This document shows, piece by piece, positions 26,486 through 62,149 of a DNA stretch of 64,000 nucleotides. Location: assembly GCA_964016885.1 (NCBI GenBank), contig OZ024744.1, forward strand, positions 42,284,001 to 42,348,000, written 5' to 3'. Position 1 is the stretch's first letter. Each line of letters begins with the position of its first letter. The position numbers were made by a program, and so were the translations under genes. The notes below the pieces were generated by a model. That model ran no database searches, had not been told where the DNA came from, and saw only the letters and a program-made list of their open reading frames with translations. The stretch comes from Eledone cirrhosa. Taxonomy: Eukaryota.

Positions 26486-27179
26486 AGTAATCCATACTAA
26501 TAATGTGTGTGTGTGTGTAGCAATATCCATAGGTGTGAGAAAAGAAAAAGGAAAAAATGCTCAGTTGGGAAGAGACCAGAAATATTAAACTATTTATTCA
26601 TGTCCATATACAGAACAAAAATGCTACCCAAGGTTTCAAGACCCAATATTCACCATATCTCCAGAATTCAAGACTTTATGATAAACTCATATAAGTGGTC
26701 TGAAGATCACAATTTTGATCCCTCTTGATTTTTGGAAGTGTGATCGATATTGGGCATTGAAATTTGGGCAGCATTCTAGTTCTGTGTATATATATATATA
26801 GTGCTCATTTTGATGGCTCTTCTGCAGGACAAAACTGCATTCTTTATATTTGTCTCAGAGACAGCTGATCCATCATCCACTGTCCCTCCCTGTGGCTCTA
26901 AGCCAGCAGAGTCATAATAACCAGACTGCTCCTTGCCAGTGTAGTTAGGGGCTCTAAACCTAGTGTTGTTAGATAGACTATCAAAGAAAGTATGATAAGA
27001 AACCAGGTGGACCATAATGCACCAGAGTACTCGATACTTAGGGTAATAGTAGGTAATAGGAAAGGAGTCAGGACCTAGACGCATGAGCTCTTAGTTCCGA
27101 TCTAGCTGTTGAAGCAACCCGAGCTCAGCTGTCAGGGTCCTGATTCTTTTCCTATATATATATATATATACATATATAT

Positions 27180-27520
27180 GGAGGCACATAGCTTAGTGGT
27201 TAAAGCATTGTCCTTGCAATTGAAAGGTTGTGAGTTCAATTCTCAGACCGGGTGATGTGTTGTTTCCTTGAGCAAGACACTTTATTTCACATTGCTCCAG
27301 TTTACTCGGCTGTAGAAATGATATGATAGGGACTGGGGTCCATATCACTCCCCTGCAAAGTGGTCGTGGAGGTGCCACGGCAAAAAAGCACCCAGCACTC
27401 ACTGTAAATGAGGTTGGTGTTAGGAAGGGCATCCAGCTGTAGAAATCAAGCCAGAATCAGTTCTCGTCCCACACTTGCAAGCAGGGAAAAGCAGACATAA
27501 AATTAGGATGATGATGATGA
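27180..27520 (+). mobile_element. tRNA-derived SINE with RTE-type tail ending in (GAT)n
   Basis: A/B boxes, CCTTGAGCAAGACAC core, tail CTTGCAAGCAGGGAAAAGC matching the RTE 3' end near 38230. Confidence 0.85.
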
Positions 27521-27639
27521 TGATATATATTGTAAACAAACTGAATATTAATAATATTATATTATATATATATGGGTTAAATAATTATCTTATTCAAGTG
27601 GCGCCAGTAAGGTATTGTCAGCCATTAAAAAGAAATATG

Positions 27640-29335
27640 GAGAGTCTATCTAACAGCACTAGGGTTAGAGCCCCTAACTACACTGTCAAGGAGCAGTCTG
27701 GTTGTTATCACTCTGCTGGCTTAGAGCCACAGGGAGGGCCAGTGGATGATGGATCAGCTGCCTCTGAGACAAATATAAAGAATGCAGTTTTGTCCTGCAG
27801 AAGAGCCATCAAAATGGGCACTTTGAATGTGAGGACTATTCGGACGCTGGAGAAGAGGGAGGAGTTGGGTCATCTGTTCGAGGAGAGTGGTATACAGATA
27901 CTTGCGATCCAAGAACACAGGATCCTACATGATGAGCCTGAGGAGTGTGATGATTAGGAAGAGGAGCCAGCTCATCACCACATCGGCAGTGAGGAACATG
28001 ACCAATGCTGCAGTGGGATGAGTGGGTTTTGTTTTCAACACAAAAACCAGTTTATTGGTGAGGGAAATAATACCTGTCTCCCTGCGAGTGTTGAGGGTGA
28101 CCTTCAATGGAAACCCAAGACTGACAGTCATCTCAGCCTATAGTCCAACCGAGGGAGACAGTGATGTAAGTGCGGAAGAGTTCCATGAGGAGGTGTGTAG
28201 AGCTATCAACACCACACAAGCTCACAACATCCTGCTTTTTCTGGGGGACTTCAATGCACATCTGAGTAAGGAGAGCAGTGAAGATCCTTGCTGGTACTTC
28301 CATAACACCAACCGAAATGGAAGACTACTGAGAGACACCCTGTTGGAGGTGAACTTGATGGCAACCAACCTAAGGTTTAGGAAGAATCCGAAGAAGATGT
28401 GGACCTACATCTTATATATGCACATGTTCAAGTCCCAGATTGATTTCATTCTGGTGAGGAAAAAGTGGCGGAATAGTGTTCTGAACACAGAACTATACAA
28501 CTATTTCAGTACACTGGGCAGTGACCACCAGCTTGTTATGAGTGAGGTTCGTGTGAGCTTAAAGAGCAAGGCTCAGTCCCGGAGAGCAATCTATGACTGG
28601 GGAGCTTTCAAGGAGGATGATGAGCTACAGGAGAGGTTCACAGTGGAAGTAAGGAACAGGTTCAGTGCTCTGTGTGGAGAAGCAGAGGAGAGAGAGATTG
28701 AAGGGACTGAGCAGAGTGTGACGAGGAGGTACAGGTACTTCATCAATGCAGTGCCGGAAGCAAGTGAGACCCTGGTGCCAAGGAGAAAGAACAAAAGAAA
28801 GCACATCAGCTCTGCAGACCCAAAAGTGTGAGCAGCCAGAGAACACCTGAAAGCTGCCAAGGACCAATTCTATGCTGATCCTACGGAGGAGAGGAAGGAG
28901 AATGTGGAGGTGATGAGGGAAGAACTCTGTACCGCTTACACTGAGGCCAGAGAGGAGGCACTGATAGAGAAGATCAGAAGTGTGGAGAGAGCGGTTGGCA
29001 GGTCTGGATGTAAGGAGAGCTGGATGATCATCAACGAGATCACAGAGAGGAAGAGAAGGTGTTCGAGTCAGATCCAGAGAACAGGGCCCGAGGATAGGAA
29101 GGCGAAATGGCTAGACCATTTTAGGACCCTACTAGGAGAGCCGCCCTCCACAGCCCAGAACACTGGGGAGATCAGGCGGCTGTTTAAAGAACTGGATATT
29201 GAGACAGAGCCCTTTACCAGAGAGGAGCTTCAGAGAGCCAAGAAGAAGATCAAGGAGGGAAAGGCTCATGGAGAAGATGGAGTGGCATCAGGGGCGATGA
29301 AGAGGTGTGATTTTGATGATATCATCCTGGAGTTC
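27640..29335 (+). mobile_element. RTE-clade LINE 5' part with AP endonuclease, disrupted
   Basis: GTLNVRT, ILAIQEHR, ISAYSPT, LGDFNAH, SQIDFILVR, SDH; then GKAHGEDG pre-RT motif. Confidence 0.85.
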
Positions 29336-29410
29336 TGTTACCAGGCACTGTTACCAGGCACTGTTACCAGGCACTGTTACCAGGCACTGTTACCAGGCAC
29401 TGTTACCAGG
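29335..29410 (+). repeat. 13-bp tandem repeat (CTGTTACCAGGCA) x~5.8
   Basis: Direct reading; joins the RTE to a SINE 3' half (29411-29550). Confidence 0.9.
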
Positions 29411-29553
29411 TGCCACGCAAAAAAGCACCCAGTACTCACTGTAAATGAGGTTGGTGTTAGGAAGGGCATCCAGCTGCAGAAATCAAGCCAGAATCAGTTC
29501 CCGTCCCACCCTTGCAAGCAGGGAAAAAGCGGACGTAAAATGAAATGATGATG

Positions 29554-29826: not shown

Positions 29827-30417
29827 TTAATCTGTTATTTCAATAAATATTTGCTCTACGGTTCTTATATATTTGATATATATTTATCCTTATAGAGCCC
29901 TCTTTGTATTTTAGTCTTCGAATTTATTATTATTACTATATATATATATATATTGTAAACAAACCGAATATTAATAATATTATGATATTATTATGTTATC
30001 ATATAATATAATTATTATTCACTCACGAATACATTAGGTATCTACCATGTTAAGAATGAAAGCAGATTTTGTTGTTTTAATTTTCTGCAAAGCCAGCTGT
30101 AAAATCGCTAGGTATGCAAATGGGGCTAACTTACTGATGTATACATTTGAGGATACTATACATTCTTAGCTGTTCCAGCAGGAAGCAGAATGAGCAGAAT
30201 ACACAATCTTGACAAGGAGCAAAACACTCCGAAACAATTGTCAATTGTCAATTGTTTTCTCTCAGCTACTGCTGGAACAAAAAGATGATGTTGTTCATCT
30301 ATCTTGTGGTATTTTATGAGGTTGTTTACTTGTAAACAAACTGAATATTAATAATATTATGATATTATTATATTATATTATTATCATTCACTCAGCAATA
30401 CATATATATATATATAA

Positions 30418-31160
30418 TATTATAATAGAATATAAAAGACAAACGAACACAGATATATACATATATGTGTTCAAATCGCAAGGGACCAGATTCGCTAAGG
30501 TGGAAAGAATGCTAATTATAGACAATAGGGTTTGCTTGTCTCAATTTAAGAAAAAAATCAAGAAAATAAATACAAACCGGAATTGTGGTAACTACCAATC
30601 ACCCAGACAACTTCTTGTTGTTTCGCAATGTTAATTAGGAATAGAATTACCAATTCAAGCTCATCAGTGGGTGATGAATTAGTATCCTAGACACTTCTAA
30701 GTATATTAAGAAACTGAATAGTGTGCTATATATAAACATTTTAGCGCACATGGCATTCTAGTGCGTCTCACAAACTTACACCACTAAAAATAGCAACCAG
30801 GTTTATTCGACATTTGAAATAGCTCAACAAATTAACGGAGTCGAATATATCAAAGGTATATAACTCTATTCCCAATTAACATTGCGAAACAACAACAAGT
30901 TGTCTGGGTGATTAGTAGTTACCACAATTCCGGTTTGTATTTATTTTCTTGATTTTTTCTTAAATTGAGACAAGCAGCAAACCCAATTGTCTATAGTTAC
31001 TATTCTTTTCACCTTAGCGAATCTGGTCCCTTACAATTTGAACACATATATGTATCTGTGTTTGTTTTTCTTTCATATTCTATTATAATATACGGCTCGG
31101 AAATATCTCTTTCTTAGAGCTATTTTATTGTAAGAGACTATTTTGAGTTCCTAACTCAAT
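30418..31160 (+). mobile_element. Fold-back element E1 (inverted arms 30418-30649 / 30861-31090, hammerhead, 3' pseudoknot tail)
   Basis: Arms are reverse complements by eye; tail GGCTCGGAAAT..GAGC shared with E2 and E3. Confidence 0.8.
30598..30675 (-). ncRNA. Type I hammerhead ribozyme
   Basis: Minus strand: ATCACCCA-CTGATGA-GC..GC-GAAA-CAAC-AAGAA-GTTG-TC-TGGGTGAT; 8-bp stem I, 4-bp stem III, GUC site. Confidence 0.85.
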
Positions 31161-31235
31161 ATATACCTTTGATATATATATTCCAAACCCATGCTAGCGT
31201 GGAAGATGGACGTTAAACGATGATGATGATGATGA

Positions 31236-31333
<98 letters not shown>

Positions 31334-31530
31334 ATTATATATATCTGTGTGTGTGTGTGTGTGTGTATGTATATTTATATCTGATACATATATCTGTGTG
31401 TGTGTATATATATATATTTATATCTGATATATATATGTGTGTGTGTGTATATATATATTTATATCTGATATGTATCTGCGTGTATGTGTGTGTGTATGTG
31501 TGTATATATACATATATATATATATATATA

Positions 31531-31690
31531 CGAGGTGTGATAGAAAAGTTCCAGGACTGATGTTACAAAAGATCTATTTCAAACCCAAACTTTACACTAA
31601 GAGTTTTCTCCTTCAAAGTAATCCCCCTGGAGTATGTAACTGTAATCTTAGCTCTCTTCAGCGATCAAACTGTTTTCTTCATAATTTTAT
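31531..31690 (+). mobile_element. Probable Tc1/mariner terminal fragment
   Basis: TA-CGAGGTGTGATAGAAAAGTTCC resembles mariner TIRs; partner TIR not found. Confidence 0.4.
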
Positions 31691-31696
31691 ATAGTT

Positions 31697-33055
31697 TTGA
31701 TACTAGCCCCTACTGCATGTGCGACCCTAAAGGGCCGCATATTCAAGTTCAACGAGAAGATTTACACCCAAAATAAGGGAACAGTCATTGGCGTCAGCAT
31801 AGCTGGTGATGTTGCCAACCTTTTCATGGTATGGTGGGAAAGGAGACTTAAAGATCTCCTTAATGGGAGCTCCATAGACCTCATCATGTACTCTCGTTAC
31901 GTAGACGATATCAATATAGTTATAAGAACATCCTCACTAGAGAACACTGACAAGTTTGATTTAGAACGTAGCACAATGGAAAGTATCCAGCAGATAGCTA
32001 ATTCCATACACCAGAGTATAACTGTAACTATCGACTTCCCTTCTAAACACCCTAACAATAGACTACCTGTATTAGACACGGAACTCTGGATTAACACTAT
32101 AGACGAGAGAGCCCAAATTCTCCACTCACACTATGCTAAATCCATGGCCTCCAAATACCTGATACTCAAAAACTCAGCAATGTCCAGTAGTGCTAAGTTT
32201 AATATTCTGATCGCAGATTTTGTACGAGTGATGAAGAATATGTCCCGCATGTGCGACCCAACAGAAATGGAAAGACACATCCAACACTTCATCAACCGCA
32301 TGCAGTTCTCTGGCTACAACCAAAGAGACAGAGTCAGAGTATACGAAGGAGCCATGGAGAAGTATAAGACCCTCATAGAACTGGACATGAAAGGAATTTG
32401 CCCATTATACAGGAGCAAATCATGGAATAGCTTAGATAGGGCTAGACATAAGATAGGGAAAGCCACCTCATGGTACGACAACCAGAGATACCAGAGTGTC
32501 ATGTTTGTGGACGCTACCCTTGGAGGAAAATTAGCTAACCAGTGTAGAAAGGCCCTGAGAAAGACCCACTTAAAGATTAAGGTGGTAGAAAAGCCAGGAA
32601 CCACCATAAAATCCTCGATCAGCAAAACCTACCCTTTTAAGAAAACCCACTGTACTAATAGGAAATGTATCATATGTAAGGTAAACCCCCGGATAAACTG
32701 TAAAACTAGAAACGTAGTCTATAGCATAAGATGTACAGAGGGTACTTGCATAAACATGACAACAACATACATAGGCGATACAGCTCGTAGCATAGGTGAA
32801 AGGATAGACCAACACTGGGGGGAACTAAAAGGACGAAAAAACGGGTCAGTATTATACGAACATGCCAGACAACAACACGACGGTAACATAGACAACATAG
32901 AAATTAGAATAATATCTAAAAATAGAAATGACCCAGCAGATAGGCAAATCAGAGATGCCAGTGAAATAGAACTTAGAAGGCCAAGACTAAACAGAAAGAA
33001 TGAATGGAATAACAACAACACCCAAACAAACAACACTGACCTAAGAGAAGTATAA
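31697..33055 (+). CDS. 5'-truncated Penelope-like element ORF: RT + Cys-rich linker + C-terminal GIY-YIG endonuclease
   Basis: FKFNEKIYTQNKG..G, YSRYVDD, LPVLD, CTNRKCIIC..C, VVYSIRC..C..YIGDTAR....R..H, H..H, RQIRDA..I...LN. Confidence 0.9.
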   Translation: MILAPTACATLKGRIFKFNEKIYTQNKGTVIGVSIAGDVANLFMVWWERRLKDLLNGSSIDLIMYSRYVDDINIVIRTSSLENTDKFDLERSTMESIQQIANSIHQSITVTIDFPSKHPNNRLPVLDTELWINTIDERAQILHSHYAKSMASKYLILKNSAMSSSAKFNILIADFVRVMKNMSRMCDPTEMERHIQHFINRMQFSGYNQRDRVRVYEGAMEKYKTLIELDMKGICPLYRSKSWNSLDRARHKIGKATSWYDNQRYQSVMFVDATLGGKLANQCRKALRKTHLKIKVVEKPGTTIKSSISKTYPFKKTHCTNRKCIICKVNPRINCKTRNVVYSIRCTEGTCINMTTTYIGDTARSIGERIDQHWGELKGRKNGSVLYEHARQQHDGNIDNIEIRIISKNRNDPADRQIRDASEIELRRPRLNRKNEWNNNNTQTNNTDLREV

Positions 33056-33607
33056 ATAAATAAATAAATAGATAAATAAATACATACACATGCACAATAA
33101 CAACAAACACATATAAACACACACTAGTAAAGATAGAATACATTAACCGATACACAGTCACCCAATCACGAACACACATCAAACAAAACACTATACACAC
33201 ACGAAAACTCATGCGCAAAGAAGATAAAATAAAATAAACAAACAAACAAATAAATAAATAAATATATAGACAGACTAAATAAAAATGGCGTAGACATACA
33301 TTGTAACGGGAGGAGACAATAGCACCACTGACGATGTTGCAGATGTGCAACGAAAGTACTTTGATAAACTATATATATGTGTTTGTGTCTATATTGTATC
33401 TGTAGTATGTTTGACCGTCGGTCAGTCAATGGCAACATTGAGGACCGAGTAAGTTAGATTACCGATATGAAAGACACAGAAGCGAAAACCAACCAAACAG
33501 TGAGTGTGTTCTGTTATTAATTCTGGCAAAATTACACAAATATTACCCTCCCCAAGTATAATAATATTTGTTTCGACACACAATTTCATATAGAAAACCT
33601 CGCAAAA

Positions 33608-33610
<3 letters not shown>
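31720..33610 (+). mobile_element. Penelope-like retroelement (ORF + 3' pseudo-LTR) ending in (TA)n
   Basis: ORF above, minimal hammerhead at 33325, tail shared with 45750-45880. Confidence 0.85.
33325..33363 (+). ncRNA. Minimal type I hammerhead ribozyme (PLE type)
   Basis: CCA-CTGACGA-T-GTTGCA-GATG-TGCAAC-GAAA-GTAC-TT-TG with palindromic AAAGTACTTT. Confidence 0.7.
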
Positions 33611-33704
<94 letters not shown>

Positions 33705-34499
33705 GATATTAACAAATGGAAACTATATTTATAAAACCATATTTATTTCATTATACATATTTCAAGGACACCAAGTTAAATTATGGTGTGCTTTCATCAG
33801 ATAAAATATAATATAGAGCAGTTTTATAAATAAATATTGACATACCCTTAAAGAATGCAACCATTACTGTTGGAAGCTCCCAACAATTTAAATACAATTT
33901 TTATATTACTAAAACACTGCGATTTCTTGCTTGCTTGTCTTTAATATAATAGAGCCAAAAGGGTGCATAATGTTGAAAATACTTTGAAAGGAAGTTGACC
34001 CTGAAATGGGAATACAAATGGTATAAAACAAGTTTCACGTAAATCGGAGCACAGGTTCCCAAGATATGGGGTTTTTCCGGGTACCTTCTTAAATAGAGAG
34101 AGAGAAGGATAGAGAGAAAGAAATAGTGGTTGTGAGAGAGTAGACTGAAAGAAAGAAACAGAGAGAGAGATGGTGATGTTATTGTGTACATAGATATATA
34201 TATATGTGTGAGTATATATATGTGTGTGTATGTGTGTGTGTCTATGACCAGTGTATATAGATCACAGACACCGACATATATATATACACACACACATACA
34301 TATATATATGTATACAGACACACATACGTATATATATGGGCCTCTCAGTTTCATTTCACATTATATACATGTCTGTGTATATTTTAATTATTTAAAAATT
34401 ATTCTTAAGTCAATATGATTTTTAAAAAATGTGAGGGCACCTGTAAGAATAGTGAGGCCACCTGTGAGACATGGGACGGGATGGGACTTTGCCCAGTAG

Positions 34500-35321
34500 A
34501 CATCCCTCCTCTTTCTCCTCCTGCTGACGTCAAGTCCCCCAAAGCATTTGGGATGCCATCCAGTGCAGCCTGACCTCAGACAGGCTCACGCACCAGCTCG
34601 ACCAGCACCGTCTTGCCTGTTTTCATGCGGCCTCCAAACCCCACAGTGGTGTCTCGCTGCATGCCTTGCCCTCCTTCTCCACTGGCATGTAGCTGGATAA
34701 CAATAGCCTGCGCATCAGCATTTCCTTGAGGCTTGGCCTCTGGCTCTGCAAGCCACACCAACGTCGCTGTGGATCCACCGTGGCCTCATTCGGCCTCCAT
34801 CCGCTTTCCTGTCGCCACAGTGCCGGCCACCTTCCATGCCATGCTCCCCTCAATGAGGTCATAAAGCATGACTTGGATGCTGCAGGCTTTGCTTCCCAGC
34901 TCGAGTCGGTGGGGCTGGACCAAGGGATCGGCAAAAGGCCAGACGGCATGACCATCTTCCTGTTCTGCAGTGGCAAACCCCTCGTCTGGGATGCCACTTA
35001 CAGCGACACTTTCTCCAGCCACAACCTGGTGCAGTCTGCGACAAACCCAGGTTCTGCTGTACGTCGGCTAAAGAGGCCAAAGTCCCCAAATACCGGTCGC
35101 ACTCTAACAGGTTTGCGGTCATACCCTTGGCAGTGGAGACTTCTGGTGTCCTTGGCCCTAGGGCTACCTCCCTGCTCACCACCATAGGCGCTGAGCTGGC
35201 TAACCACAGGTGTGAGCCTCGTGAGTTGGAATGGCTCTTCCAGTGCGTCTCCCTGACCATCCTCCAGAGAAACGCCTTCTGCATTCTGTCCACCGGGGTT
35301 GTGGGGAAGCCATCCATATGA
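34500..35321 (+). mobile_element. CRE-clade non-LTR retrotransposon 3' fragment (RLE endonuclease)
   Basis: HPLSC..H..LNEVIK, GKRPDGMT..LVWDAT..DT, AVETSGVLG, FQCVSLTILQRNA; locally GC-rich. Confidence 0.8.
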
Positions 35322-36426
35322 TTACTTAACCCTTTTGGAAACTTTTTGTGTGATTGACTATGCCTTCTCCCACCTTATTCTTTTCACATTATTCAACCCT
35401 TGCCACTGCAAGCAGTATTTCTACAACATAGCTTAACAACAAACATATTTAGGGATTTATTCATTGATCGCAGTATATTTAATCTAAATATACAAAATTG
35501 TATAATATAAATATACAAAATTGTATAAAATTGTTATTCTTTAAGGTTTAGTAATGCACCCCATGGAGCTGTGTGTCCTACCTAGTTGATCTTAATGGTA
35601 GTATCTGCCACACAGCTAATTATGCTAACAATTTGTGTGTGTTTTTGTTGTTTTATTTTGTTTTTTATGGAGGTTTTTAGGGGGGAGGGCTGTGTTTTGT
35701 TGTTTTCGGTAGTTTTTCAACATTATTTTTCCAAACAACGTTAACAAATAGCCACTAATTTAACTAAATTTATTTGTCATTTACTCCCCACAGACAAAAT
35801 GGCAAAAGCATTATGAAACAAAGAACAGCCAGTGATATCTACATTAACAGCCATTCCACACCACAGGGCTCCAAAAATATAACAAAGATTCATTAAACCT
35901 TTCATTACCATATTTTTAATGAAAGACACAAGCTGTGATTTTCAAATAAATTTGAAAACAATCAAGACTTTGAAGGGATCTTGTAAAATAGCTAACTTTC
36001 CCATTTCTTAACTGGTGTTTGGAGCACAACTTCACAAAAATTCTTATATAAAATTATCATTGAAGGGTTTTTTTTGTTGTTGTTGTTGTTTTATACAAAT
36101 GTAAACACTTTAAAACAAACAATTTTGTATCATAGAACCAGAAGTGATTTCAGGTAGTGTTGAATCAAGTGAGTTAAAATAGGCAAACAACAGAATTGAT
36201 GATCATCTCTCTCCATCCTGGCCCAGTACTGCAAAAAGAGATGAAATATATCAATGATTAAACAGAGACCTCATTTGGGGCAATAAGATTCAACAACAAA
36301 TTCAAACAAACCCACTCAGTTGATGTAAAATGAGACTCTCAGAGGCTTGGAAATAATTATGTGATGAATGTAAGGTTTTTTATTCCATAACTTCTGTTGA
36401 TATATGATATGTTTCAAAGAACAAAG

Positions 36427-36545
36427 AATTTCAAACAACAATTTCAAACAACAATTTCAAACAAAGAATTTCAAACAACAATTTCAAACAACAATTTCAA
36501 ACAAATAATTTCAAACAACAATTTCAAACAACAATTTCAAACAAC
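36427..36545. repeat. 13-bp minisatellite (AATTTCAAACAAC)n, left part
   Basis: Direct reading; continues at 38273-38368. Confidence 0.9.
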
Positions 36546-38272
36546 AGGGACCAGCTATTGAGATTGACGAATATAGGGTCCAAGAGGTGATTAAGGAAAG
36601 GAAAAATGGTAAGGCTGCTGGACCATCGGGAATAATTGCTGAAATGCTGAAGGCATCAGGGGACGTAGGCACTAAACTGGTTGTATGCATCATCAATCAA
36701 AATATATGGTGGTGTTATACCCAAATACTGGTGCAGCAGTATTCTCATAAATTGCTACAAAGGTAAAGGGGATGCACTGGAGAGGAGCAATTATAGGGGT
36801 ATAAAACTGATGGATCAGATTATGAAAGTGGCAGAAAGGATATTAGCACAACTAATTAGAGAAAGGGTCAAACTAGATAAGATGCAGTTTGGTTTTGTGC
36901 CTGAGAAGAGTACAACAGATGCCCTCTTCTTGGTGAGACAATTGCAAGAGAGGTTCTTAGAGAAAAATAAGCCACTATACTTAGCCTTTGTTGACCTAGA
37001 GAAGGCCTTTGATAGGGTACCCCAATCTGTCATCTGGTGGTCCCTAAAGAAACTAGGTGTTGAGGAATGGCTTGTGAGGACAGTGCAAACTATGTACAGA
37101 GGTACTGTCAGTAAAGTCAGGGTAGGAATGGAGTTTAGTGAGAAATTCCAGATACAAGTAGGAGTACATCAAGGTTCAGCCCTCAGCCTGCTCTTGTTCA
37201 TTATAGTCCTCCAAGCCATAACAGAGGAGTTTAAGACTGGCTGTCCATGGGAACTTCTCTATGCTGACGATCTGGTTCTTATAGCAGAATCAGTAGAGGA
37301 GCTAGAGAATAAATTCTGGCTATGGAAACAGCAGTTGGAAGAAAGAAGACTGAGAGTGAACCTAGCTAAAACAAAAGTGTTGATGAGTAGAAAAGAGGAC
37401 AAAACTCTGATTCCGTCAGGGAAATGGCCATGTTCAATATGCAGAAAAGGAACTGGCATAAATTCTATAAAATGCACACAATGCAGATCCTGGGTACACA
37501 AGAGATGTAGCGGGATAGCAGGCAAACTAACAGGTAGGGAGAAATATGTATGCAGTAGATGTACAGGGAAATTAGACAGTAGAAGTCGCATTGATAGACA
37601 CATTTTTCAAATGCAGGAGGGTGCTATAGAAGTGATAGATAGCTTCCGGTACCTAGGAGATCAGATTAGCATGGGAGGAGGGTGTTCCAAGGCCATAGTA
37701 TCTAGAATAAGGACGGGTTGGAAGAAGTTTAGGGAGCTGCTTCCTCTGCTGACGAAGAAGGGTTCCTCCCTGCGTACGAAAGGCCAGTTATATGATGCCT
37801 GTGTGAGGAGCGCGATGCTGCATATTAATGAGACATGGGCAGCAACTGAATGAGACATGGGCAGCAACTGCAGAGGATATGCGATGGCTGGAGAGAAATG
37901 AGGCAAGCATGCTCCATTGGATGTGCAGTGTTAATGTGTGTGAACAACCCAGCATGAATGTGTTGAGAGAGAAACTGTGTCTGAGAGGGATAGAATTTAG
38001 TGTATGGGAGAGGAGACTGAGGTGGTATGGACATGTGATGCACATGGAGGATGACCGATGGGTGAAGAAGTGCCAGGAAATGCCAGTTGAAGGAAGACGT
38101 GGTAGAGGTAGACCACAAAAAACATGGGTAGAGATGGTGAGAACAGACCTCAGATCGCTGAAGCTCACCATGTAGATGACGAATGACCGTGACAATTGGA
38201 GAGATGCTGTGCTGAATAAGACCCATCACACCCTTGCAAGCAGGGAAGAGCGGACGAAAAATGATGATGATG
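36546..38272 (+). mobile_element. RTE LINE (RT with PHD-like finger), 5'-truncated
   Basis: ORF 36681-37853: NYRGIKL, FVDLEKAFD, VHQGSALS, LYADD, CSIC..C..C..WVHKRC..C..C, FRYLG; ends GRGRP and (GAT)n. Confidence 0.92.
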
Positions 38273-38368
38273 AATTTCAAACAACAATTTCAAACAATTT
38301 CAAACAACAATTTCAAACAATTTCAAACAACAATTTCAAACACAGAATTTCAAACAAATTTTAAACAA
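38273..38368. repeat. 13-bp minisatellite, right part
   Basis: Same unit as 36427-36545. Confidence 0.9.
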
Positions 38369-38999
38369 TTCTTGTAGTAATTACGGTATTCTTATAACTT
38401 TTATTATTTCTCTTAAGAATTCCAAGTTTCTCTGGAGAATTTCTATACTTTTTACTTGTTTTTTTATTCAAATATAACAGATTGTTGTTGTTGTTGTTGC
38501 TGTTGTTGTAGTTGTTGTTGCTGCTGCTGCTGGTTTGGTTGTTTTAAATGTGGTTATTATCACCACCATCATCACCATACTTATTATTTTCATCTTCATT
38601 TTCATAATCACAATCATTATCATTATCATCATCATTGTCATCATCATCGTCATCATTATCATCCATATCATCATCAACATCACTACCACTAGGACTACCA
38701 CAACCAACAACACCACCATAACCATCACCTCCACCATCACCATCATCATCATCACCACCACTACTGCCACCAATACAACCATTGTCACCACCATCACTAT
38801 TGTTGGTTAGCGCCCAGGTATTTTTATACCTTGGTCTACATTAACCAATGTAGCCATCCTATTTAAGAGTGTAGGGTGAGGGTTAGGGAGAATTTAACCC
38901 CCATTTCTTCACTCTCATATTTTGGCTTGGTTTCTAGGACTGGATGACCTTGGCAGCTCAGTCATGGGAAACCATGCTTAATGTGTCTGGAGTTATGGC

Positions 39000-39355
39000 T
39001 AGTCTTTGGCATCATCTGCCATAACTGTGCAGAACATGCAGAACAATGCATGAGTGACAGTCCTTGCTGCACTTGGTGCAGATTTATGTAGAGTCCTGTG
39101 TTGTCGGCATGTCTGTGATGTGCTTTTTTTCAGTTCCTCTTTTCTGCTACAAGTTGACCTCTTTTCACATCTGCATGTACAATGCCTTTGTGGACAGTCA
39201 GATGGCAACCCCAGCCTCTCTCTCTCAGCTGGAAGGAGGGATATTACAGACTTTCATGTCTCTCTTGCATGCATCCCTGAAATGGAATGATGGGTGACCC
39301 ACTCACCTAGTGAAGGATGTCTTTTGGGAACTTCCATCCACCGTACATCAAATGT
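39000..39355 (-). mobile_element. Degenerate RTE/Vingi-like LINE 3' fragment
   Basis: Remnants of PKDIL and a C-terminal CTKCSKDCHS zinc-finger-like motif. Confidence 0.45.
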
Positions 39356-39364
39356 GAGGCTCTA

Positions 39365-39590
39365 GTGGAGGTGCATGGCCTAGTGGTAAGAGTGTTGGCC
39401 TTACGGTCATAATGTCATGGGTTCGATTCCTGGGCTGGGTTGCATGTTGTGTTCTTAAGCAAAAATTTCATTTCACATTGCTCCAGTGTACCCTGCAATG
39501 GACTGGCGTCCTATCCATGGAGAAGTCTTGTGTTGTCAGTTCCTTCAAGCCATGAACCCAGGATAAGCACCAGCCTAACAAGCATTAAAC
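39365..39590 (+). mobile_element. tRNA-derived SINE (Meta/V-like)
   Basis: TGGCCTAGTGGT A-box, GGTTCGATTCC B-box, TTCTTAAGCAA..TTTCACATTGCTCCAG core. Confidence 0.7.
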
Positions 39591-39717
39591 AGCTTAAGAC
39601 AGACTTTGGTAAAAAGATTCTTACCCAAGGAGCCATGCAGTGGAATTGAACCAAAGATTCTGTGGTTGCAAAGCAAACTTTTTGACTCCACAGTCAGACC
39701 TGTTTATATAAAATCTA

Positions 39718-40172
39718 TTAACCCTTTAGCATTTAAACCAGCCATATCCAGCCAGCCAGGATTCTCTCACCTCTTTCTGCTCAAACAGCCATAACTGGCC
39801 ACTCATACTAATGTTAAGGTATTATTCTCAAAATAACATCAAAATCTCGTAGATTCAATATTATATGAAATAATTATGAGATAAAATCTTTACCACAAAA
39901 ATACAATAGTATATATAGAATAAATGTTTCTACTATAGGCACAAGGCCAGCAATTACCCCAGTACATTACTGGTACTTTATTTTATCGAACCCATAAAGA
40001 GGAAAGAAAAAGTTAACCTCGGCAGGATTTGAACTCAGGGTATAAAGGGGCATAGAATAATGTAAATACTTGTTTCTACTTTAGGCACAAGGCCAGCAAT
40101 TACCCAGTGCATTACTGGTACTTTATTTTATCGACCCCGTAAGGATGAATAATGTAAATACTAAAGGGTTAA
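39718..40172. mobile_element. piggyBac-type MITE carrying two Nin-like SINE fragments
   Basis: TTAA-CCCTTTAGCATTTA ... TAAATACTAAAGGG-TTAA. Confidence 0.8.
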
Positions 40173-40329
40173 AGAAAGATTTTTCATATACTTTTTGTTC
40201 TTTATGCAATACTGTGATTTAATTTGTTAACTGATTGATCAATCTATACCAGTATAATCTATACATGTTTTCATAAACCACATCAGTTGGTGTTGTTATT
40301 TAGTCACAGGTTGGTGTCAATTGCTGTCA

Positions 40330-40388
40330 CTATCACCATGACCATCATCATCTTCCCCATCATCTTCACCGTCATCATCATCACCACC

Positions 40389-40455
<67 letters not shown>

Positions 40456-40462
40456 CCACCAC

Positions 40463-40509
<47 letters not shown>

Positions 40510-40578
40510 ATATCATCAACATCATCATCATCACTATCATCATTATCATCATGATGATGATCATCATCATCATCAACC

Positions 40579-40615
<37 letters not shown>

Positions 40616-40655
40616 TATAAACATCATCATCATCATCATCATCATCACCACCACC
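40330..40655. repeat. (CAT)n/(CAC)n microsatellite
   Basis: Direct reading. Confidence 0.95.
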
Positions 40656-54230: not shown

Positions 54231-54619
54231 ATATATAATATCGTCTTTTTTTTAACGTATCATGGATTACGTTACTGATTACATTAGACAGTGTAACACA
54301 GACTTCGTACAATTTCTGTGTATATTGTCAATTACGATTGTATTTGATCATATCTAAATGCATATATACTTGCGTATAATATCAATATACACACTACACA
54401 TGCTAGCAGATATATAATATCGCCTTTTTTAATGTATCATGGATTACGTTACTGATTACATAAGAGAGTGTAACAGACTTCGTTCAATTTCTGTGTATAT
54501 TGTCAATTACGATTTTATTTCATGTATCATATCTACATGCATATATACTTGCGTATAATATCAAATTACACACTACACACGCTTGCAGAAAACCACCCGA
54601 AGGGTGGTTTTTCTGCTAG
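54231..54619 (+). mobile_element. Non-autonomous Helitron-like element with a tandemly duplicated ~180-bp body
   Basis: Terminal hairpin GCAGAAAACCACCC-GAA-GGGTGGTTTTTCTGC overlapping CTAG then T; two body copies starting ~54231 and ~54410. Confidence 0.65.
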
Positions 54620-54949
54620 TTAATATAATATAAAGAAATGGAGATATATTTTTAGTTATTTAAAAAAAGGATTTTCTTTAACCATTATGGAGATCATTAA
54701 AAATACTGGGGCAGATCAAAATGAATAGAGAATATTTGAAAGAGGCGATCAACTAAGAGGACATTTGTTGGAAATGTTCTCAAGGCAATGCATAAAGAAA
54801 ACTTATGACGATATAGTAAATGTAGAAAAAGAGTGTTTTATTGTGAAATCCCTTCAGATATTTTAGAACCTTATTTATGTAAAATTTGAAGCTGATGAAA
54901 TTCGTCAGAATAGTGACCCCAAATATAAGATCACCTCCCCATTTTATCA

Positions 54950-55177
54950 TTAACCCTTTAGTGTTCAAACCGGCCAAAACTGGCCAGAATTCTCTACCTC
55001 TTTCTGTTGAAACTGGCTGTAACTGGTCGCTCAAACTGATGTTAAGGTATTGTTCTCAAAATAAATACTTTCAAAATCTCATAGATTCGATATTATGTGA
55101 GATAATTATGCGAGGTAAAGCATTTACCATGAAAATATAATATTATTTAAAGAATAATGTGAATGCTAAAGGGTTAA
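54950..55177. mobile_element. piggyBac-type MITE
   Basis: TTAA-CCCTTTAG...CTAAAGGG-TTAA; internal similarity to 39718-40172 and 63458-63631. Confidence 0.85.
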
Positions 55178-55889
55178 GTTTTTGGTCACATATTCCTCAG
55201 CTTATAATTGAGTATATACGGTAAGGGAGATGAACCTAGCTAAAAAGCCAGTAGCTCAAGCTAACAACTGGCTTGGTCTGTTCCAATCCATCCAACCATT
55301 GCTAGCAGGGAAAACATAATAATGATGATGAGGAGGAGGGGTGAAAGGTGAAGGGGGAGGAGGAGTTTGAACAGAAGGAGGAGGTAGAGGAGTAGGAAGT
55401 TGAGGAGTATGAGGATGAAGAGATGAGGAGGAAGAGGATGAGAAAGAGGAGGGGAGGAGGCGGGGAAGAGGATGATGATGAGGAGGAGGTTGAGGAGGAG
55501 GAAAATGTAACTTAGATGTAAATTCTTCTCTTCTTTTCTTATGTGAATTTGCCCACTAATCCCCCCCCCCCCCCATGATATGGTTGTGGGGACAGTGTCC
55601 CCAGATACACTTTGAAATATGATAAAAGGGCAAGGCATCTGACAGAAATAAATAAATAAATAAATAATAATATAGATTGAGCAAAGCAACTTAAAAAATA
55701 ATCAAATGAAAAAGAAAAATATAAATAAATTGAATGCCTTTTTTTATGTGTGTGAAATAAAAATAACCCAACTTATTACTAACTACTTAGAATAACATTG
55801 AAACAGTAAACCACACAGCATCCAAGTTTATGGAGATGAAAACAATGAAATGAAAATTAGTATCGGTTGACAAAAGAAGTATGTAATAT

Positions 55890-58080
55890 GACAAGAAAGG
55901 GGTCTGGGGATGTGCTGAACAACACCTAATCAACAAAACTGCGATGTCGGAGGTGCGACAACTTAGGAGGAATATGGCTACAGTCTGGCTGGACTACAGG
56001 AAAGCTTTCGATTCAGTTCCCCACTTTTGGATGATAGAGGCCCTTCAACTTGCTAAAGTCCCAGACATTATTGTCAGAGCCATAGAGAAGCTGTCTTCTG
56101 CTTGGGCTACTATCCTAAGGTTAAAGACAGAGAGGGAGGACTCTATTTTCACTGATAAAATGAAATATCGCAGGGAGACAGTCTAAATGTGATATTATTC
56201 ATCTTGTCATTAAACCCCTTGTCTTTTCTGCTCAAGAAATGTGAAGGATACATCATTGGCTCACAGGAGGACAGAAATATGAAACTAACCAATAATTTCT
56301 TTGTGGATGATCTGAAACTATATGCCAAGAACATGGATGAGATGAAGAAAAATATTGACCTGGTTACAACGTTCTCAAAGGATATAGGAATGGAGTTTGA
56401 CCAGGATAAAAGCTCATATATGACTGTAATGCGGGGGAAAACAACAACCCAATCTAGCAACATTGTCATCAATGGCCTAAATGTTTCACCGATATCTGAT
56501 GAGGACTGCTACATATACCTGGGGATAGATGAGAACATATCATATAATGGTATATGTAATAAGGAATGCGTAACCAGGGAATACTACACCCGATTAAGAA
56601 AGATTTGGTCTTCAGAACTCTCTGCGCAAAACAAAACAGTGGCTCACAATGTGTTTGCTGTGCCTGTCCTAACACCAACATTTGGAATACTCAATTGGAC
56701 GATTGACAAAATCCGAGTAGTTGATGTTGGAACTCGAAAAATACTAAACAACACCGGAAACTTCCACATCAACAGTGACATAGACCGCCTTTACTTGAAA
56801 CGTAAGCAGGGAGGCAGAGGCCTAACATCAGTCCAGACAGCATTTGAATGTCGCATCATATCTCTACGACAACATCTACGAACATCGAAGCGTAAGAGCC
56901 CGTCTATTGAGCAAGTATATCTGCATGGAACAGATAAGATCATGAGAGTTGGGAAGGAAATCTTCGAGAGGTATTCCCTGAGTGATAATCAAAAACTCAC
57001 ATCCAAGGAAGTCGCTCAGCAGTATTGCAGTGAACCCTGGATGAAAAACTGCATGCTTATCAGCAAAAAATCATGCATGGATATGTTGCCAGGAAGCCCC
57101 AGAGGGAGAGTAATATAGATAAGGAAAGTAGTCTATCTTGGACCAACAACCACTATATTGGCCCCCACTTTGAAGGATATGCTTTTGCAATCCAAGAATA
57201 GGAAATTAACACAAAATACCTGATTCACAAAAGAGATAGGCATGCAGGCAAAACACCTAAATGTGATAACAAGTGCAAACTCCGCAGAACTAACATCGAA
57301 GATATCATCAATGTCATCAGCAGCTGTCCAAAGATGTCATTGCGGTACTATCTACCTATGAGGCATGATGTAGTGCCCAAAACACTGTACAATGCAATCC
57401 GTAAAAAAGATAGCCCCGATAATAAATACATTAAAAGCTACAGCAATGTGGAAGACTTCATGTACATAATATGAAAGAGTACTGGTGGAATGTTCTAGTA
57501 AAAACCCCAATAAATTGCAGGTATAACAGACCAGATATTATGATATGGGACAGGGAAAAGAAGGCATGCACAGTAGTGGAAATTAGCTGCCCAACAGATG
57601 CCAATATAATATCAAAGATTAGCAAAAAGGAGAATATTTATGCAGAACTGATGAGAAATCTGCAGATACTCTACCCTGATTACACCTTCAGATTTATGCC
57701 TGTGATTATTGCGGCATTGGGGTAGGTTAGTAACTGCCTCAATACAAATCTTGAGAAGCTAGGCTTCACAGGAACAGAAAGAACACAACTAGTTAGGAAA
57801 TTACAAGTACAATCCATTAACGGAACAGTAAAATATGTAAAACATTCCAAAAATTGTGCATCTAATAACTGCATATACACATGTACAGATGCAAAGCATA
57901 TACACATGCACACATACAACTCAAAACATAAACATCCATATCTACACATGCATGCATACATACATATCTACCTAGTTGATGTTGTGTAAATTCCAATGAG
58001 AGAGTCTTGTGTCTATGTTAGAAACTGACTCACTCTCTACTGGGAAAAAATTTGTGAAATTATAAAACCAGAAGAACATA
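55890..58080 (+). mobile_element. R4/Dong-like LINE family A, 3' half with 3' UTR
   Basis: WLDYRKAFDS, FFVDDLKLY, RHD, NRPDIMIWD..VEISCP; ends at (CATA)n. Confidence 0.9.
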
Positions 58081-58249
58081 CATACATACATTTGCAAAAC
58101 ATTCTTATAATTCAAGGGATGACAATTTATTTTCTTTTACAACCTTGCCACCAGAAAGGTGGCCGGTCAAAAATGTACTCGAAATTAAGAGAAAGAGAAA
58201 CATACATATGTATATACATAATTACATACATACATGCATACATACATAA

Positions 58250-60527
58250 TGAAATCTTACATGCTATTGACAAAATAGGGGATGAATATTATGACGAATT
58301 TAAAACCCCACGATTGGCGCAAATCAACACCTGTTTATATGCCTTAGGAATGACAGCGAAGAATTATCTTGGTGATAGGAGAGATATTAACACAATAAAA
58401 CTCCACTAAAAATACCATCATATATAACTAAAATATTTTTTAAAGATTGCTGACCTACAAAAAACTATAGGATATGTGACAAAACTCCTTACATGCAAAC
58501 AAAAACAAAAATAAAATTCACTCCTCACCAACAAAGAGTGAAAAATAAAATAGAAACGATGTTTGGTAACAGTAGAACCAGAACTTTTCAATATAAGCTG
58601 ATCACCCTCAAACAAAAATTGAGAGCTGTCAGTAAGAAACATTGATACCTGAAGAGGGTAGATGAAAGAAAAGTAATTAATAAAAGATTCAGATGAAACC
58701 AAACATCCGTCTATAGAGATATGAAGGGCAAAGTAATAAATGTCACTGAGGCCCCATACCAGAAAGACATAGATTCCTTCTGGAGAAAAATATGAGGTGA
58801 AAAGAAGAATTTCAACCAAGACACAGTGTGGTTAAAAGAAATGCCAAAGAGCTATTGCTCCTACGCAACAACAAAAAACATACGGAATAAATGAGGATTC
58901 ACTTGAGACTGTGATAGGAAAATTCCAGGATAAGAAAACACCAGGAAGAGACATGATTGTCGGCTACTGGTACACGAGACTGATATTCTATTAGATGTAT
59001 CTTATCAACCTCTAACAGCAAGCTCTCAAGATACACATATACCAGAATGGTTGAGATTAGCACAAACAATAATGGTCCCCAAGAACAAAGACACCCACTT
59101 GGCAAAAATTTACAAACATTGTGTGACAGAACCTGATGCATAAGATGTATACAGTCTGCCTGAAACTATTTCTCCAAGATTACTGTGAAAATAATTGTTT
59201 CTACTTTTGGCACAGCAATTACACAGTGCATTACTGGTACTTTATTTTATCGACCCCGTAAGGATGAAAGACAAAGTTAGCCATGCCGGGATTTGAACTC
59301 AGAAGATAAAGGTGTCATAACTCTATGCTGAAAACCATGGTGCCTAACGCTTTACCGATACTGCCAGTGAAAATGATAACATCATCACTGTTGAACAAGC
59401 AGCTGGAAAGAAAGGTATTTGGGGTGTGCTGAACAACTCCTAATCAACTATGATGTCGGAGGTGCGACAACTTAGGAGGAATATGGCTACAGTCTGGCTG
59501 GACTACAGGAAAGCTTTCGATTCCCCACTCTTGGATGATAGAGGCCCTCCAACTTGCTCAGACATTATTATCATACATTATTATCAGGGCCATAGAGAAA
59601 CTATCTTCTTCTTGGGCTACTATCCTAAAGTTAAAAACAAAAAAGGAAAACTCTATTTTCACTAATAAAATAAAATATCACAGGAGTAAATTTCAAGGAG
59701 ACAGTCTCTCTGTGATATTATTTATTCTGTCATTAAACCCCTTGTCCTTTCTGCTCAAGAAATGTACAGTATATAACATTGGTTCACACGAGAACAGAAA
59801 TAGGAACTTAATCTTTATGGATGACCTGAAACTCTATGCCAAAAACATAAACGGGATGAAGAAAAATCTTGACCTGGTTACATCATTCTCAAAAGGATAT
59901 AGGAATGGAGTTTGGCCAAGATAAATTTCATATATAATCGTAAAGTGAGGAAACGACAACCAAAGCTGGCATCATTTTTATCAATGGCCAAATTGTTTCA
60001 CTGATAGCTGATGATGACTGCTACAGGTACCTGGGGATAGATGAGAATATATCCTATAATGGTATTTGTAATAAGGAATGCATAACCAGGGAATGTTACA
60101 CCCGATTAAGAAAAATATGGTTTATCGGAACTAACTGCACAAAATAAAACAGTGGCTCACAATGTGTTTGCTGTGCCTGTCCTAATACCAACGATAGTCA
60201 AAATCTGAGCAAATGTTAAAACACAAAAAATTCTAAACAGCACCAGAAACTCCCACATCAACAGTGATATAGACCGCCTTTACTTGAAACGTAAGCAGGG
60301 AGGCAGAGGCTTAACATCAGCCCTGACAACATCTACAAACCTTGAAGCGTAGGAGCCCGTCTATTGAGCAAGTCTATCTGCATGAGGCAGATAAGATCAT
60401 TAGAGGTGGGAAGGAAATCCTCGAAAGATATTCCCTGCATAATAATCAAAAACTCAGACCTAGGGAAACTGCCAAGCAATACTGCAATGAATCCATGGAT
60501 GCTTATCACCAAAACATCATGCATTGA
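58250..60527 (+). mobile_element. R4/Dong-like LINE family A, degraded, with SINE insertion at 59194-59367 (-)
   Basis: Reverse-complement homology to 1-2160; FQGDSLS, FMDDLKLY. Confidence 0.85.
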
Positions 60528-60811
60528 TATGTTATATATTTTGCTATGTATTCAAACTGAATGGCACTGCATAGAATATACTAGAAGACCTTCTTTCAAC
60601 TAAGCTGTGTAATATCCTGCATCAGCTAGAATACCTTAGTAGTGGTGAAATCTTCATGCTTGCAGTTTCCTTGCAACCAGTTGTTGAATATACTTGATCC
60701 TGAGGTTTTGTTGTTGTTTTCAGTGAAAGTTTTACATATTTCCTGTCTTTTATCCAAACTCAGATAAATCAACTTGTGTTGGTATCATGCAAATATGATA
60801 AATGTGTGTGA

Positions 60812-61026
60812 CAAAAAGCACCCATCCCACACTGTAAAGTGGAGATGTAAAAGACATGGCAAAAAGCACCCAGCCCACACTGTAAAGTGGACATATAAAA
60901 GACATGGCAAAAAGCACCCAGCCCACACTGTAAAGTGGACATATAAAAGACATGGCAAAAAGCACCCAGCCCACACTGTAAAGTGGACATGTAAAAGACA
61001 TGGCAAAAAGCACCCAGCACACACTG
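60812..61026 (+). repeat. 48-bp tandem repeat x~4.5 inside a SINE/RTE tail
   Basis: Unit AAAAAGCACCCAGCCCACACTGTAAAGTGGACATATAAAAGACATGGC. Confidence 0.9.
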
Positions 61027-61263
61027 TCAATGTGGTTGATATTAGGAAGGGCATACAGCCATAGAAAAGCAGCCAATAACACTCCTATATGAATGAGACA
61101 CAGTCACTCGACCCAACTTGCCTCTAAACCCATCTAACCCATGCTAGCGTGGAAGATACACGTTAATCGATGATGAGGATGACGATGATATATAGATATA
61201 TATTAGTTAGGTGTGTAACTACAGTTACAGGCAGTGAGCATATATATACAAGTGAGCATATAT

Positions 61264-62079
61264 ATACAAGTTAATATAAATTAATATATGATAAACACCA
61301 ATATGAACATATAAGCGTTTCTATTGTAAACGACCAAGTTAGCTAGATTGAAACATACTAATTAGATTAATACAGTTTGCCTGTCTCGATTTAAAATAAT
61401 AAATCAATAAAAACAAACCCATATTGGCAATAGCCGTGATTCCTGGACAAATTTAATTTCAAAATCCAAACCTGTTCCGCAGACAAATTTAAATTTCAAA
61501 ACCCAAATAAGTTTCGCAACGATAATTTAACGATAATTTAACGGCTTCTTTTGTTGAGCTAAATTTTAATCCCATATAGAAGGCTGTTATTTCTAGCAGA
61601 ATGAGTATGGGGCTAGCTAGGAGCTGGGAAACCACGTGCGTTAGCATTTGATTACCAGTCCTCCAAAAATATTTCGAGGTGAAACATATTAATTTCTGGA
61701 TACCTGCCGATGACCACAGGAATTGGAATTTTTCACTTTTTTAAATTATCGTTGTGAAACTTATTTGGGTTTTGAAATTTAAATTTGTCTACGGAACAGG
61801 TTTGGATTTTGAAATTTAAATTTGTCCAGGTATCACGGTTATTGCCAATATGGGTTTGTTTTTATTGATTTATTATTTTAAATCGAGACAGGCAAACTGT
61901 ATTAATCTAATTAGTATTTTTCAATCTAGCTAACCTGGTCGTTTACAATACAAACGCTTATATGTTTATATTGGTGTTTATCATATATTAATTTATATTA
62001 ACTTGTATTTCATGGCTCGGAAATGCTTCTTTCTTTGAGCTAATTATTTGTAAAAGACTGTTTCAGTTTATAACTCTAA

Positions 62080-62080
<1 letters not shown>
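61264..62080 (+). mobile_element. Fold-back element E3 (arms 61264-61530 / 61741-62008, degenerate hammerhead, 3' pseudoknot tail)
   Basis: Arms are reverse complements; tail GGCTCGGAAATG..GAGC followed by long (TA)n. Confidence 0.82.
61699..61834 (+). ncRNA. Degenerate type I hammerhead with duplicated stem III
   Basis: GATACCTG-CCGATGA..GAAA..[TTTGG.TTTTGAAATTTAAATTTGTC]x2-CAGGTATC; 8-bp stem I, core U4 changed to C. Confidence 0.65.

Positions 62081-62149
<69 letters not shown>

Follow-up and report, generated by a model that had tools for sequence, protein, structure and literature searches.

In the one Penelope-like element (PLE) studied in vitro, the enzyme is a predicted dimer that cleaves both strands and extends them, with initiation at two internal sites between which the tail lies (PMC11167929). 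The layout of a PLE insertion, as given in PMC8557442, is an inverted 5′ copy plus a one-sided tail, and the origin of PLE tandem and inverted structures and of their tails is stated there as an open question. Retrozymes consist of tandem type I hammerhead repeats (PMC7229834), and their mobilization by PLEs has only been proposed (PMC7229834; bioRxiv 10.64898/2026.07.22.740005). Here, we describe three elements, E1, E2, and E3, in a 64,000-nucleotide stretch of Eledone cirrhosa DNA (the window; contig OZ024744.1). Because their families, present in thousands of copies, show the complete signature of PLE insertion yet lack coding capacity, they link both questions.

Like non-LTR retrozymes (Cervera and de la Pena 2020, PMC7229834; Li et al. 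2026, bioRxiv 10.64898/2026.07.22.740005), the E1-E3 families consist of ORF-less, low-GC (31 to 43%) monomers arranged in tandem, with a single type I hammerhead each, occur as dispersed monomers, dimers, and short multimers, and belong to a group with a proposed dependence on PLEs. Their assignment to that class, known here from sequence, follows from a short tandem unit with a type I hammerhead, no coding capacity, and a GC content below 45 to 50%; the 45 E3-family pieces share the tandem unit but none has the canonical core. The families differ from retrozymes in unit length (505 to 550 bp, versus 350 to 390 for mussel monomers and 51 to 972 for the family consensus sequences of Li et al.), in their strict (TA)n flanks, in having several amplified subfamilies with altered catalytic cores, and in that most insertions have a tail on one side only and an inverted copy in head-to-head orientation. 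The word "inverted" occurs 0 times in PMC7229834 and once in bioRxiv 10.64898/2026.07.22.740005. With EN+ PLE insertions, as presented by Arkhipova et al. 2013 (PMC3846280), Craig et al. 2021 (PMC8557442), and Frangieh et al. 2024 (PMC11167929), they share 5′ truncation, partial tandem copies, an inverted 5′ copy, a one-sided tail, two fixed 3′ ends, an AT-rich or microsatellite target, and a hammerhead; in the E1-E3 families, the inverted copy is 5′ truncated, the tail is bounded, and the target is a microsatellite. In contrast to the published 30- to 40-bp tails, tails here are 80 to 86 nt, and the E1-E3 families further differ in having no ORF and a repeated GCTC motif beside both ends. Non-autonomous Chlamys PLEs such as MRC1 are likewise non-coding, pLTR forming, and present as multicopy head-to-tail insertions (PMC8557442); however, their 3′ end resembles an autonomous family and their clade is without canonical hammerheads, whereas the E1-E3 families have a hammerhead and no partner was found in the three PLE groups that we inspected. 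Two labels that an earlier, sequence-only reading had offered as alternatives, non-autonomous ribozyme retroelements and Penelope-type inverted insertion products, hold jointly. The architecture and the class are already published, and we found no description of these particular families in the main texts of the cited papers.

Judged by their sequences, E1, E2, and E3 are separate insertions of one high-copy superfamily of 505- to 550-bp ORF-less hammerhead monomers, and an nhmmer search within the window returned no family member beyond these three. Alignment confirmed the inverted arms of E1 (30417-30649 and 30861-31091; 236 bp, 91% identity, spacer of 211), E2 (46194-46465 and 46659-46932; 274 bp, 95% identity, spacer of 193), and E3 (61264-61530 and 61741-62008; 268 bp, 97% identity, spacer of 210), and the adjacent TA repeats were also borne out. 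The arms had been described as unrelated between elements; instead, those of E1 and E3 are 69% identical across 257 bp (E value of 2e-19), and all three monomers are collinear. Nor is the "spacer" a separate part, as had been supposed: it is part of the inverted copy on the left in E1 and of the right copy in E2 and E3. In E1, this inverted copy (30417-30862, minus strand) is a near-whole monomer without its tail, matches positions 4 to 439 of a natural copy (L043) at 92%, and has its outer end at a position that we call site A. The sense copy (30861-31173, plus strand; monomer positions 208 to 523, 92%) is 5′ truncated, comprises the hammerhead 3′ half, a T-rich body, and the tail, and has its outer end at a second position, site B. 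The E1 tail (31092-31173, plus strand) runs from A to B, begins GGCTCGG..GAGC, and contains predicted stems. In E2, a 5′-truncated inverted copy ending at site A (46194-46465, minus strand) is followed by a sense copy of about one monomer (46466-46987, plus strand; "spacer," right arm, and tail) that stops ~31 nt before its family's site B and has a short form of the tail (46933-46987, plus strand). In E3, the 5′-truncated inverted copy (61264-61530, minus strand) also ends at site A and retains only the hammerhead 3′ half, while the sense copy (61531-62088, plus strand) is one full 550-bp monomer that ends at site B; its tail (62009-62088, plus strand) runs from A to B and is followed by a (TA)34 array.

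The tail reads straight into the following monomer, with unit lengths of 505, 540, and 550 bp and monomer GC contents of 31%, 33%, and 43%. The elements had been called ORF-less, and this stands: the longest stop-free frame in doubled monomers is 49 to 75 amino acids. Upstream of complete monomers lies the tail of another monomer, an inverted piece, or unrelated flank, with no common ORF. Recurrent 5′ ends (E1 position 104 and E2 position 329) were considered as signs of a longer element and rejected, since the flanks upstream of 40/40 single-orientation copies share only other repeats. Two contig runs, of unstated kind, span the stretch and contain the tail-to-start join; they are uninformative on expression.

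The usual hammerhead core is CTGATGA/GAAA. Hammerheads had been placed within the arms, which is true of E2, where complete motifs with the usual core are predicted in both arms (46366-46448, minus strand, and 46676-46758, plus strand). In the other two elements, a complete motif exists only across an arm and the "spacer." That of E1 (30598-30675, minus strand only) is a predicted complete type I hammerhead with an 8-bp stem I, CTGATGA, GCGAAAC, and a GTC cleavage triplet, reaching across the left arm and "spacer." That of E3 (61699-61834, plus strand), across the "spacer" and right arm, is hammerhead-like: its core, CCGATGA, is non-canonical, and its long stem III includes a duplicated segment. 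An Rfam scan reported no hammerhead at an E value of ≤1, and the assignments rest instead on pattern and covariation: stem I has double-sided changes in 4/6 pairs between families. Minimum free energy folds recovered stem I in all four motifs, and the full active fold was not recovered in E1. The canonical core is present in 45/53 E1-family and 52/54 E2-family pieces and in 0/45 E3-family pieces, of which 42 have TTGATGA or CCGATGA and none has CTGATGA. Other subfamilies have CAGAAGA cores. Ribozyme cleavage and circle formation are therefore doubtful in the E3 family and in these subfamilies.

All three families are abundant, with 3180, 3334, and 3575 first-look candidates, and the tail pattern has 784 exact matches versus 0 for a control. 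The insertions that we analyzed are the best-scoring matches of the families rather than a random draw. From 180 loci, removal of 33 rows that repeated one insertion left 147 distinct insertions (one near-identical locus pair being scored as a single insertion), and 2 complex insertions were left out of the insertion statistics, leaving 145. In 47 of these 145, co-oriented sequence extends beyond one unit (longest run, 1432 bp), and the head-to-head layout is present in 105 of the 147 top-scoring distinct insertions. Both outer ends are fixed: sites A (the tail start) and B lie 80 to 86 nt apart, each abuts (TA)n, and a GCTC motif lies 1 to 5 nt 3′ of both in all three families. An asymmetric 3′ tail had been noted, and its start holds up (GGCTCRG..GAGC occurs 3 times in the window versus 0.10 expected by chance), but its length in the families is 80 to 86 nt, not 60 to 70. 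One A end and one B end are paired in 79 of the 105 head-to-head insertions; B ends occur in 100 and A ends in 84, and 36/40 single-orientation copies end at B. A TA run of at least 8 nt adjoins 73/79 A ends and 74/79 B ends, and because (TA)n surrounds both, a target site duplication is unreadable.

By contrast with the outer ends, the inner junctions all differ (105/105). They comprise 50 with a 1- to 5-nt overlap, 8 blunt, 33 with 1 to 14 nt of filler, and 14 others. By eye, inner ends showed no evident enrichment at the monomer boundary or the hammerhead cleavage site, 5′ ends had no excess clearly marking the cleavage site, and E3 inner ends form a weak cluster at 283 to 308. Among the 79 insertions with an A and B end pair (the 26 without one, E2 among them, being excluded), arms range from 8 to 532 bp and spacers from -18 to 852 bp. 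These data bear on the proposal that an arm-spacer-arm-tail unit or a MITE moves whole, its near-constant lengths set as if by a ruler. In geometry, E1, E2, and E3 resemble one another to an unusual degree (equal tightness occurs in only 13 of 73150 random triples), as that proposal would have it; we tentatively ascribe this likeness to their selection by the sequence-only reading. However, the size box of E1-E3 holds 1/77 outside copies and a wider box 6/77, the spacer lies on a different strand in E1 than in E2 and E3, the elements have no terminal inverted repeats, their termini are not complementary, and the variable junctions are the outcome that had itself been named as speaking against a mobile unit. 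We consider this reading refuted in this sample and almost certainly wrong. The fixed property is the two outer ends, not arm or spacer length, and the seemingly strange feature, a fold-back of fixed geometry, does not exist.

Given the observed monomer structure, tandem copies, fixed A and B ends, variable inner ends, and TA flanks, we think it probable that these are independent (TA)n insertions of related ORF-less hammerhead monomers, copied in trans by a PLE RT/endonuclease that primes two cDNAs. The template would be monomer RNA in circular or concatemeric form. A PLE enzyme, possibly dimeric, would bind the pair of GCTC..GAGC hairpins located immediately 3′ of sites A and B and prime one cDNA per target strand at RNA sites 80 to 86 nt apart; both cDNAs would extend toward the 5′ end, halt at random points, and be joined head to head through short stretches of microhomology or a small number of filler bases. 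The "arm" would then be the overlap of the two cDNAs, the "spacer" their difference in length, and the "tail" the A-B interval. In the same elements, the inverted arm could alternatively arise by self-priming (fold-back) on one strand, followed by endonuclease trimming at site A. Fold-back has been proposed for PLEs from palindromic junctions (PMC3846280), and the tail has been attributed to EN-mediated resolution (PMC8557442). Inner ends coincide in 10 of 79 insertions, twice the expectation (4.9; p = 0.02), so some copies may arise in this manner. A fold-back copy cannot exceed its template arm, yet the longer arm is A in 27/79 insertions, E1 among them, and B in 42/79 (equal within 20 bp in 10/79), and fold-back would require later deletions in most copies. 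That either arm can be longer favors priming twice, once on each of the opposite target strands, over a simple fold-back, and we judge the self-priming origin unlikely. A-arm and B-arm lengths are uncorrelated (rho = 0.14, p = 0.22, n = 79). Variants are common to both arms of one insertion at 39 to 61% versus 10 to 17% between insertions, and in only 21/90 pairs is the copy nearest to an arm its partner, which is closer than the median in 75/90; the two arms of E1 are no closer to each other than average. This same-template signal is moderate, and gene conversion between arms could also yield it.

Three autonomous PLE groups were inspected as candidate partners, and none has tail sequence in common with the monomers. 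Those rejected for want of homology to the monomer tail were the window PLE (31685-33052) together with its relatives, the L103 family (25 loci as well as a single tandem stretch), and the L080 family, likewise of 25 loci. The monomers might, on another account, be mere pLTRs of an autonomous PLE whose copies are heavily 5′ truncated. Their layout matches PLE ends (PMC8557442; PMC3846280), they may well have a pLTR as their ancestor (bioRxiv 10.64898/2026.07.22.740005), and 13 loci have PLE ORF fragments at a distance of no more than 1.5 kb. In 11 of the 12 loci read, however, a TA run parts the ORF-bearing element from the monomer; at the other, L080, the ORF element is joined directly to the monomer, the sole such case among 40 scored hits. 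No copy is joined to an ORF in pLTR manner, no RT plus GIY-YIG ORF lies between pLTRs, and the absence of a common ORF upstream of complete monomers also speaks against this account, which we regard as very unlikely.

The trans-copying reading permits a more tentative suggestion, which may prove wrong: that these RNAs of 0.5 kb serve as a pared-down substrate that reveals the manner of PLE integration, in which a duplicated GCTC..GAGC hairpin sets two RT active sites 80 to 86 nt apart on one RNA, so that both target strands are primed. The inverted repeat and the tail would then follow directly, the families would be direct genomic evidence that PLE enzymes move animal retrozymes, and ribozyme cleavage would be dispensable for retrozyme spread. 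Once a partner protein is known, the published in vitro PLE assay could take an E1-E3 monomer as its RNA, a short template whose two candidate start signals are open to mutation. In the tail, two stems show 98.6% pairing and 4 double-changed pairs, in three families only and with the structure drawn from the same alignment. The same layout, with a GCTC motif 3′ of both A and B, is present in further subfamilies.

Inverted-repeat comparison of the window revealed four local inverted repeats of the kind under study, three of which are the fold-back hammerhead elements E1 (~30418-31160), E2 (46194-46995) and E3 (61264-62080), bearing out the positions and sizes given by the sequence-only reading. 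The tail motif common to the three (the tail being the one-sided 3' end) occurs 3 times in the window, against 0.10 by chance. The arms, which had been called unrelated, do align between E1 and E3 (69% over 257 bp), and natural monomers from all three families are collinear over their full length. The placement of the hammerhead within the arm holds for E2, where both arms carry a complete copy; in E1 and E3, however, the complete motif spans arm and spacer, on the minus strand in E1 and on the plus strand in E3 (core CCGATGA). Relative to the monomer, E1 consists of an inverted, nearly full-length copy joined to a truncated sense copy, while E2 and E3 each combine a truncated inverted copy with a complete sense copy. 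The spacer is the portion of the longer copy that is missing from the shorter one. A profile search of the window found no other members of these families.

The fourth inverted repeat (26800-26982 and 27640-27822; 183 bp, 95%, 657 bp apart) overlaps the 5' region of a LINE-type reading frame (27424-29548) that encodes an endonuclease (Exo_endo_phos_2) and an RT, and neither a hammerhead nor the tail motif was found in it. Beside each of E1, E2 and E3 (at 31180-31237, 46995-47052 and 61137-61190, respectively) lies the 3' terminus of a common short repeat (AACCCATGCTAGC..GACGTTAAACGATGATG); this terminus is the probable source of the TA/ATG microsatellite, which would account for the association. 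The best protein match to a neighbouring ORF comes from an octopus, in keeping with a cephalopod genome.

Searching the 3.0-Gb genome with the three arms gave 3180, 3334 and 3575 first-look candidates, which are not copy numbers. We sampled the best 30 loci per arm-plus-tail and the best 30 per tail alone, and these 180 best-match loci collapsed to 147 distinct insertions. The monomers have unit lengths of 505, 540 and 550 bp and a GC content of 31 to 43%, and no ORF was found in those of the E1, E2 and E3 families. Where units stand in tandem, each tail is followed without a gap by a new unit, and 47 of 145 insertions from this sample contain a stretch in one orientation that exceeds a single unit in length. 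These families belong to the non-LTR retrozymes, a known class (PMC7229834; bioRxiv 10.64898/2026.07.22.740005). Their insertion architecture is that known for Penelope-like elements (PLEs), for which non-autonomous, tandem-forming members are also known (PMC8557442). None of the papers returned by literature searches describes the E1-E3 families, inverted retrozyme insertions or the recurrence of one motif at the two start sites.

A search with the tail pattern (784 matches versus 0 for a control pattern) added further subfamilies that are 70 to 85% identical to E1/E3 and have the same layout. Further monomer subfamilies are represented by loci L181-L210, L242 and L237. Core position 4 of the hammerhead differs (T, C or A) among amplified subfamilies, and one E3 relative has the core CTGAGGA. 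The canonical core was found in 0 of 45 E3-family copies and other subfamilies carry CAGAAGA; thus, judging from these sequences, ribozyme cleavage may be weak or dispensable in both. A natural U3-A8 core variant of PLE hammerheads is reported in PMC4209133, whereas the E3 form has U3 but retains G8.

The near-constant arm and spacer lengths of E1 to E3 had suggested a fixed blueprint. Among the 147 best-match insertions (105 head-to-head, 40 single-orientation and 2 complex), all 105 head-to-head inner-end pairs were different. Across the 79 insertions whose ends are standard, arm length ranged from 8 to 532 bp and spacer length from -18 to 852 bp; for the 47 of these selected by tail, the ranges were 8 to 518 bp and -5 to 552 bp. 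Only 1 of 77 copies outside the window matched the E1-E3 dimensions. Together, these results refute a molecular ruler, and the strange fixed geometry of the fold-backs is not real. The mutual likeness of E1 to E3 is equalled by only 13 of 73,150 random triples; we take the resemblance of the window's only three family members as a coincidence singled out by the earlier reading.

Outer ends, by contrast with inner ends, cluster at two positions. Site A immediately precedes the tail and site B marks the tail's 3' limit; the two are 80 nt (E3), 84 nt (E2) or 85 to 86 nt (E1) apart. One A end and one B end were present in 79 of the 105 head-to-head insertions of the best-match sample. TA runs of 8 nt or more adjoin the A end in 73 of these 79 insertions and the B end in 74. 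A GCTC motif lies 1 to 5 nt past A and again past B in all three families; in E1 and E3, both occurrences have the form GGCTC..GAGC and are predicted hairpins. E2 itself, a single case, has an altered B-side motif and ends ~31 nt short of B, facing a further GGCTC. Double-sided changes between families (three families only) occur in two tail stems and in hammerhead stem I. For the study of PLE integration, the fixed ends and shared motif offer a modest but testable starting point.

The copies in E. cirrhosa fit, by analogy, a two-primer version of the scheme described for an anole PLE. In vitro, that protein, a predicted dimer, cuts and extends both target strands, and reverse transcription begins at two internal sites bounding the tail without a need for hammerhead cleavage (PMC11167929). 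Here, one cDNA would start at B and the other at A; each would halt at a random point, and the two would then be joined via a 1- to 5-nt overlap or short filler. Inner junctions of the 105 head-to-head insertions show such overlaps in 50 and short filler in 33. Self-priming, in which one strand folds back and is copied (PMC3846280), may cover a minority of copies, as 10 have coincident inner ends versus 4.9 expected. However, the longer arm can lie on either side (27 versus 42 of 79 insertions) and arm lengths are uncorrelated, so a fold-back copy of one strand would need later deletions. Runs longer than one unit would require a circular or uncleaved concatemeric template. Arms of one insertion have 39 to 61% of variants in common, versus 10 to 17% between different insertions, consistent with one source for both arms. 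However, the copy closest to an arm was its own partner in only 21 of 90 pairs, E1 not among them.

In a search for a PLE partner, tblastn with 40 PLE-related proteins gave matches at 13 of 177 loci. We read 12 of these, and in 11 a TA run parts the ORF-bearing element from the monomer. At L080 (G000:C21:3889000-3890300), an E3-family monomer and the 3' UTR of a truncated PLE on the same strand are fused with no TA run between them, and TA lies on the flanks. This single case is possibly a template switch, which would point to the mobilizing family; the join did not recur among 40 scored hits. No GCTC tail was found in the three autonomous PLE groups inspected. Two of these groups (L237-L261; L067, L073, L088, L196, L202 and L206) have alternative 3' end pairs, ~43 and ~60 nt apart, that run into TA, the same signature as in the monomers. 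The window's own PLE region (31685-33610) has no sequence relationship to E1. Pattern search found no hammerhead in the noncoding part of a very young PLE family (L212-L236 and L262); its 150 scored hits are 98 to 99% identical to one another at the amino acid level, frames of 777 aa are numerous, and the 3' region is long and TG/TA-rich.
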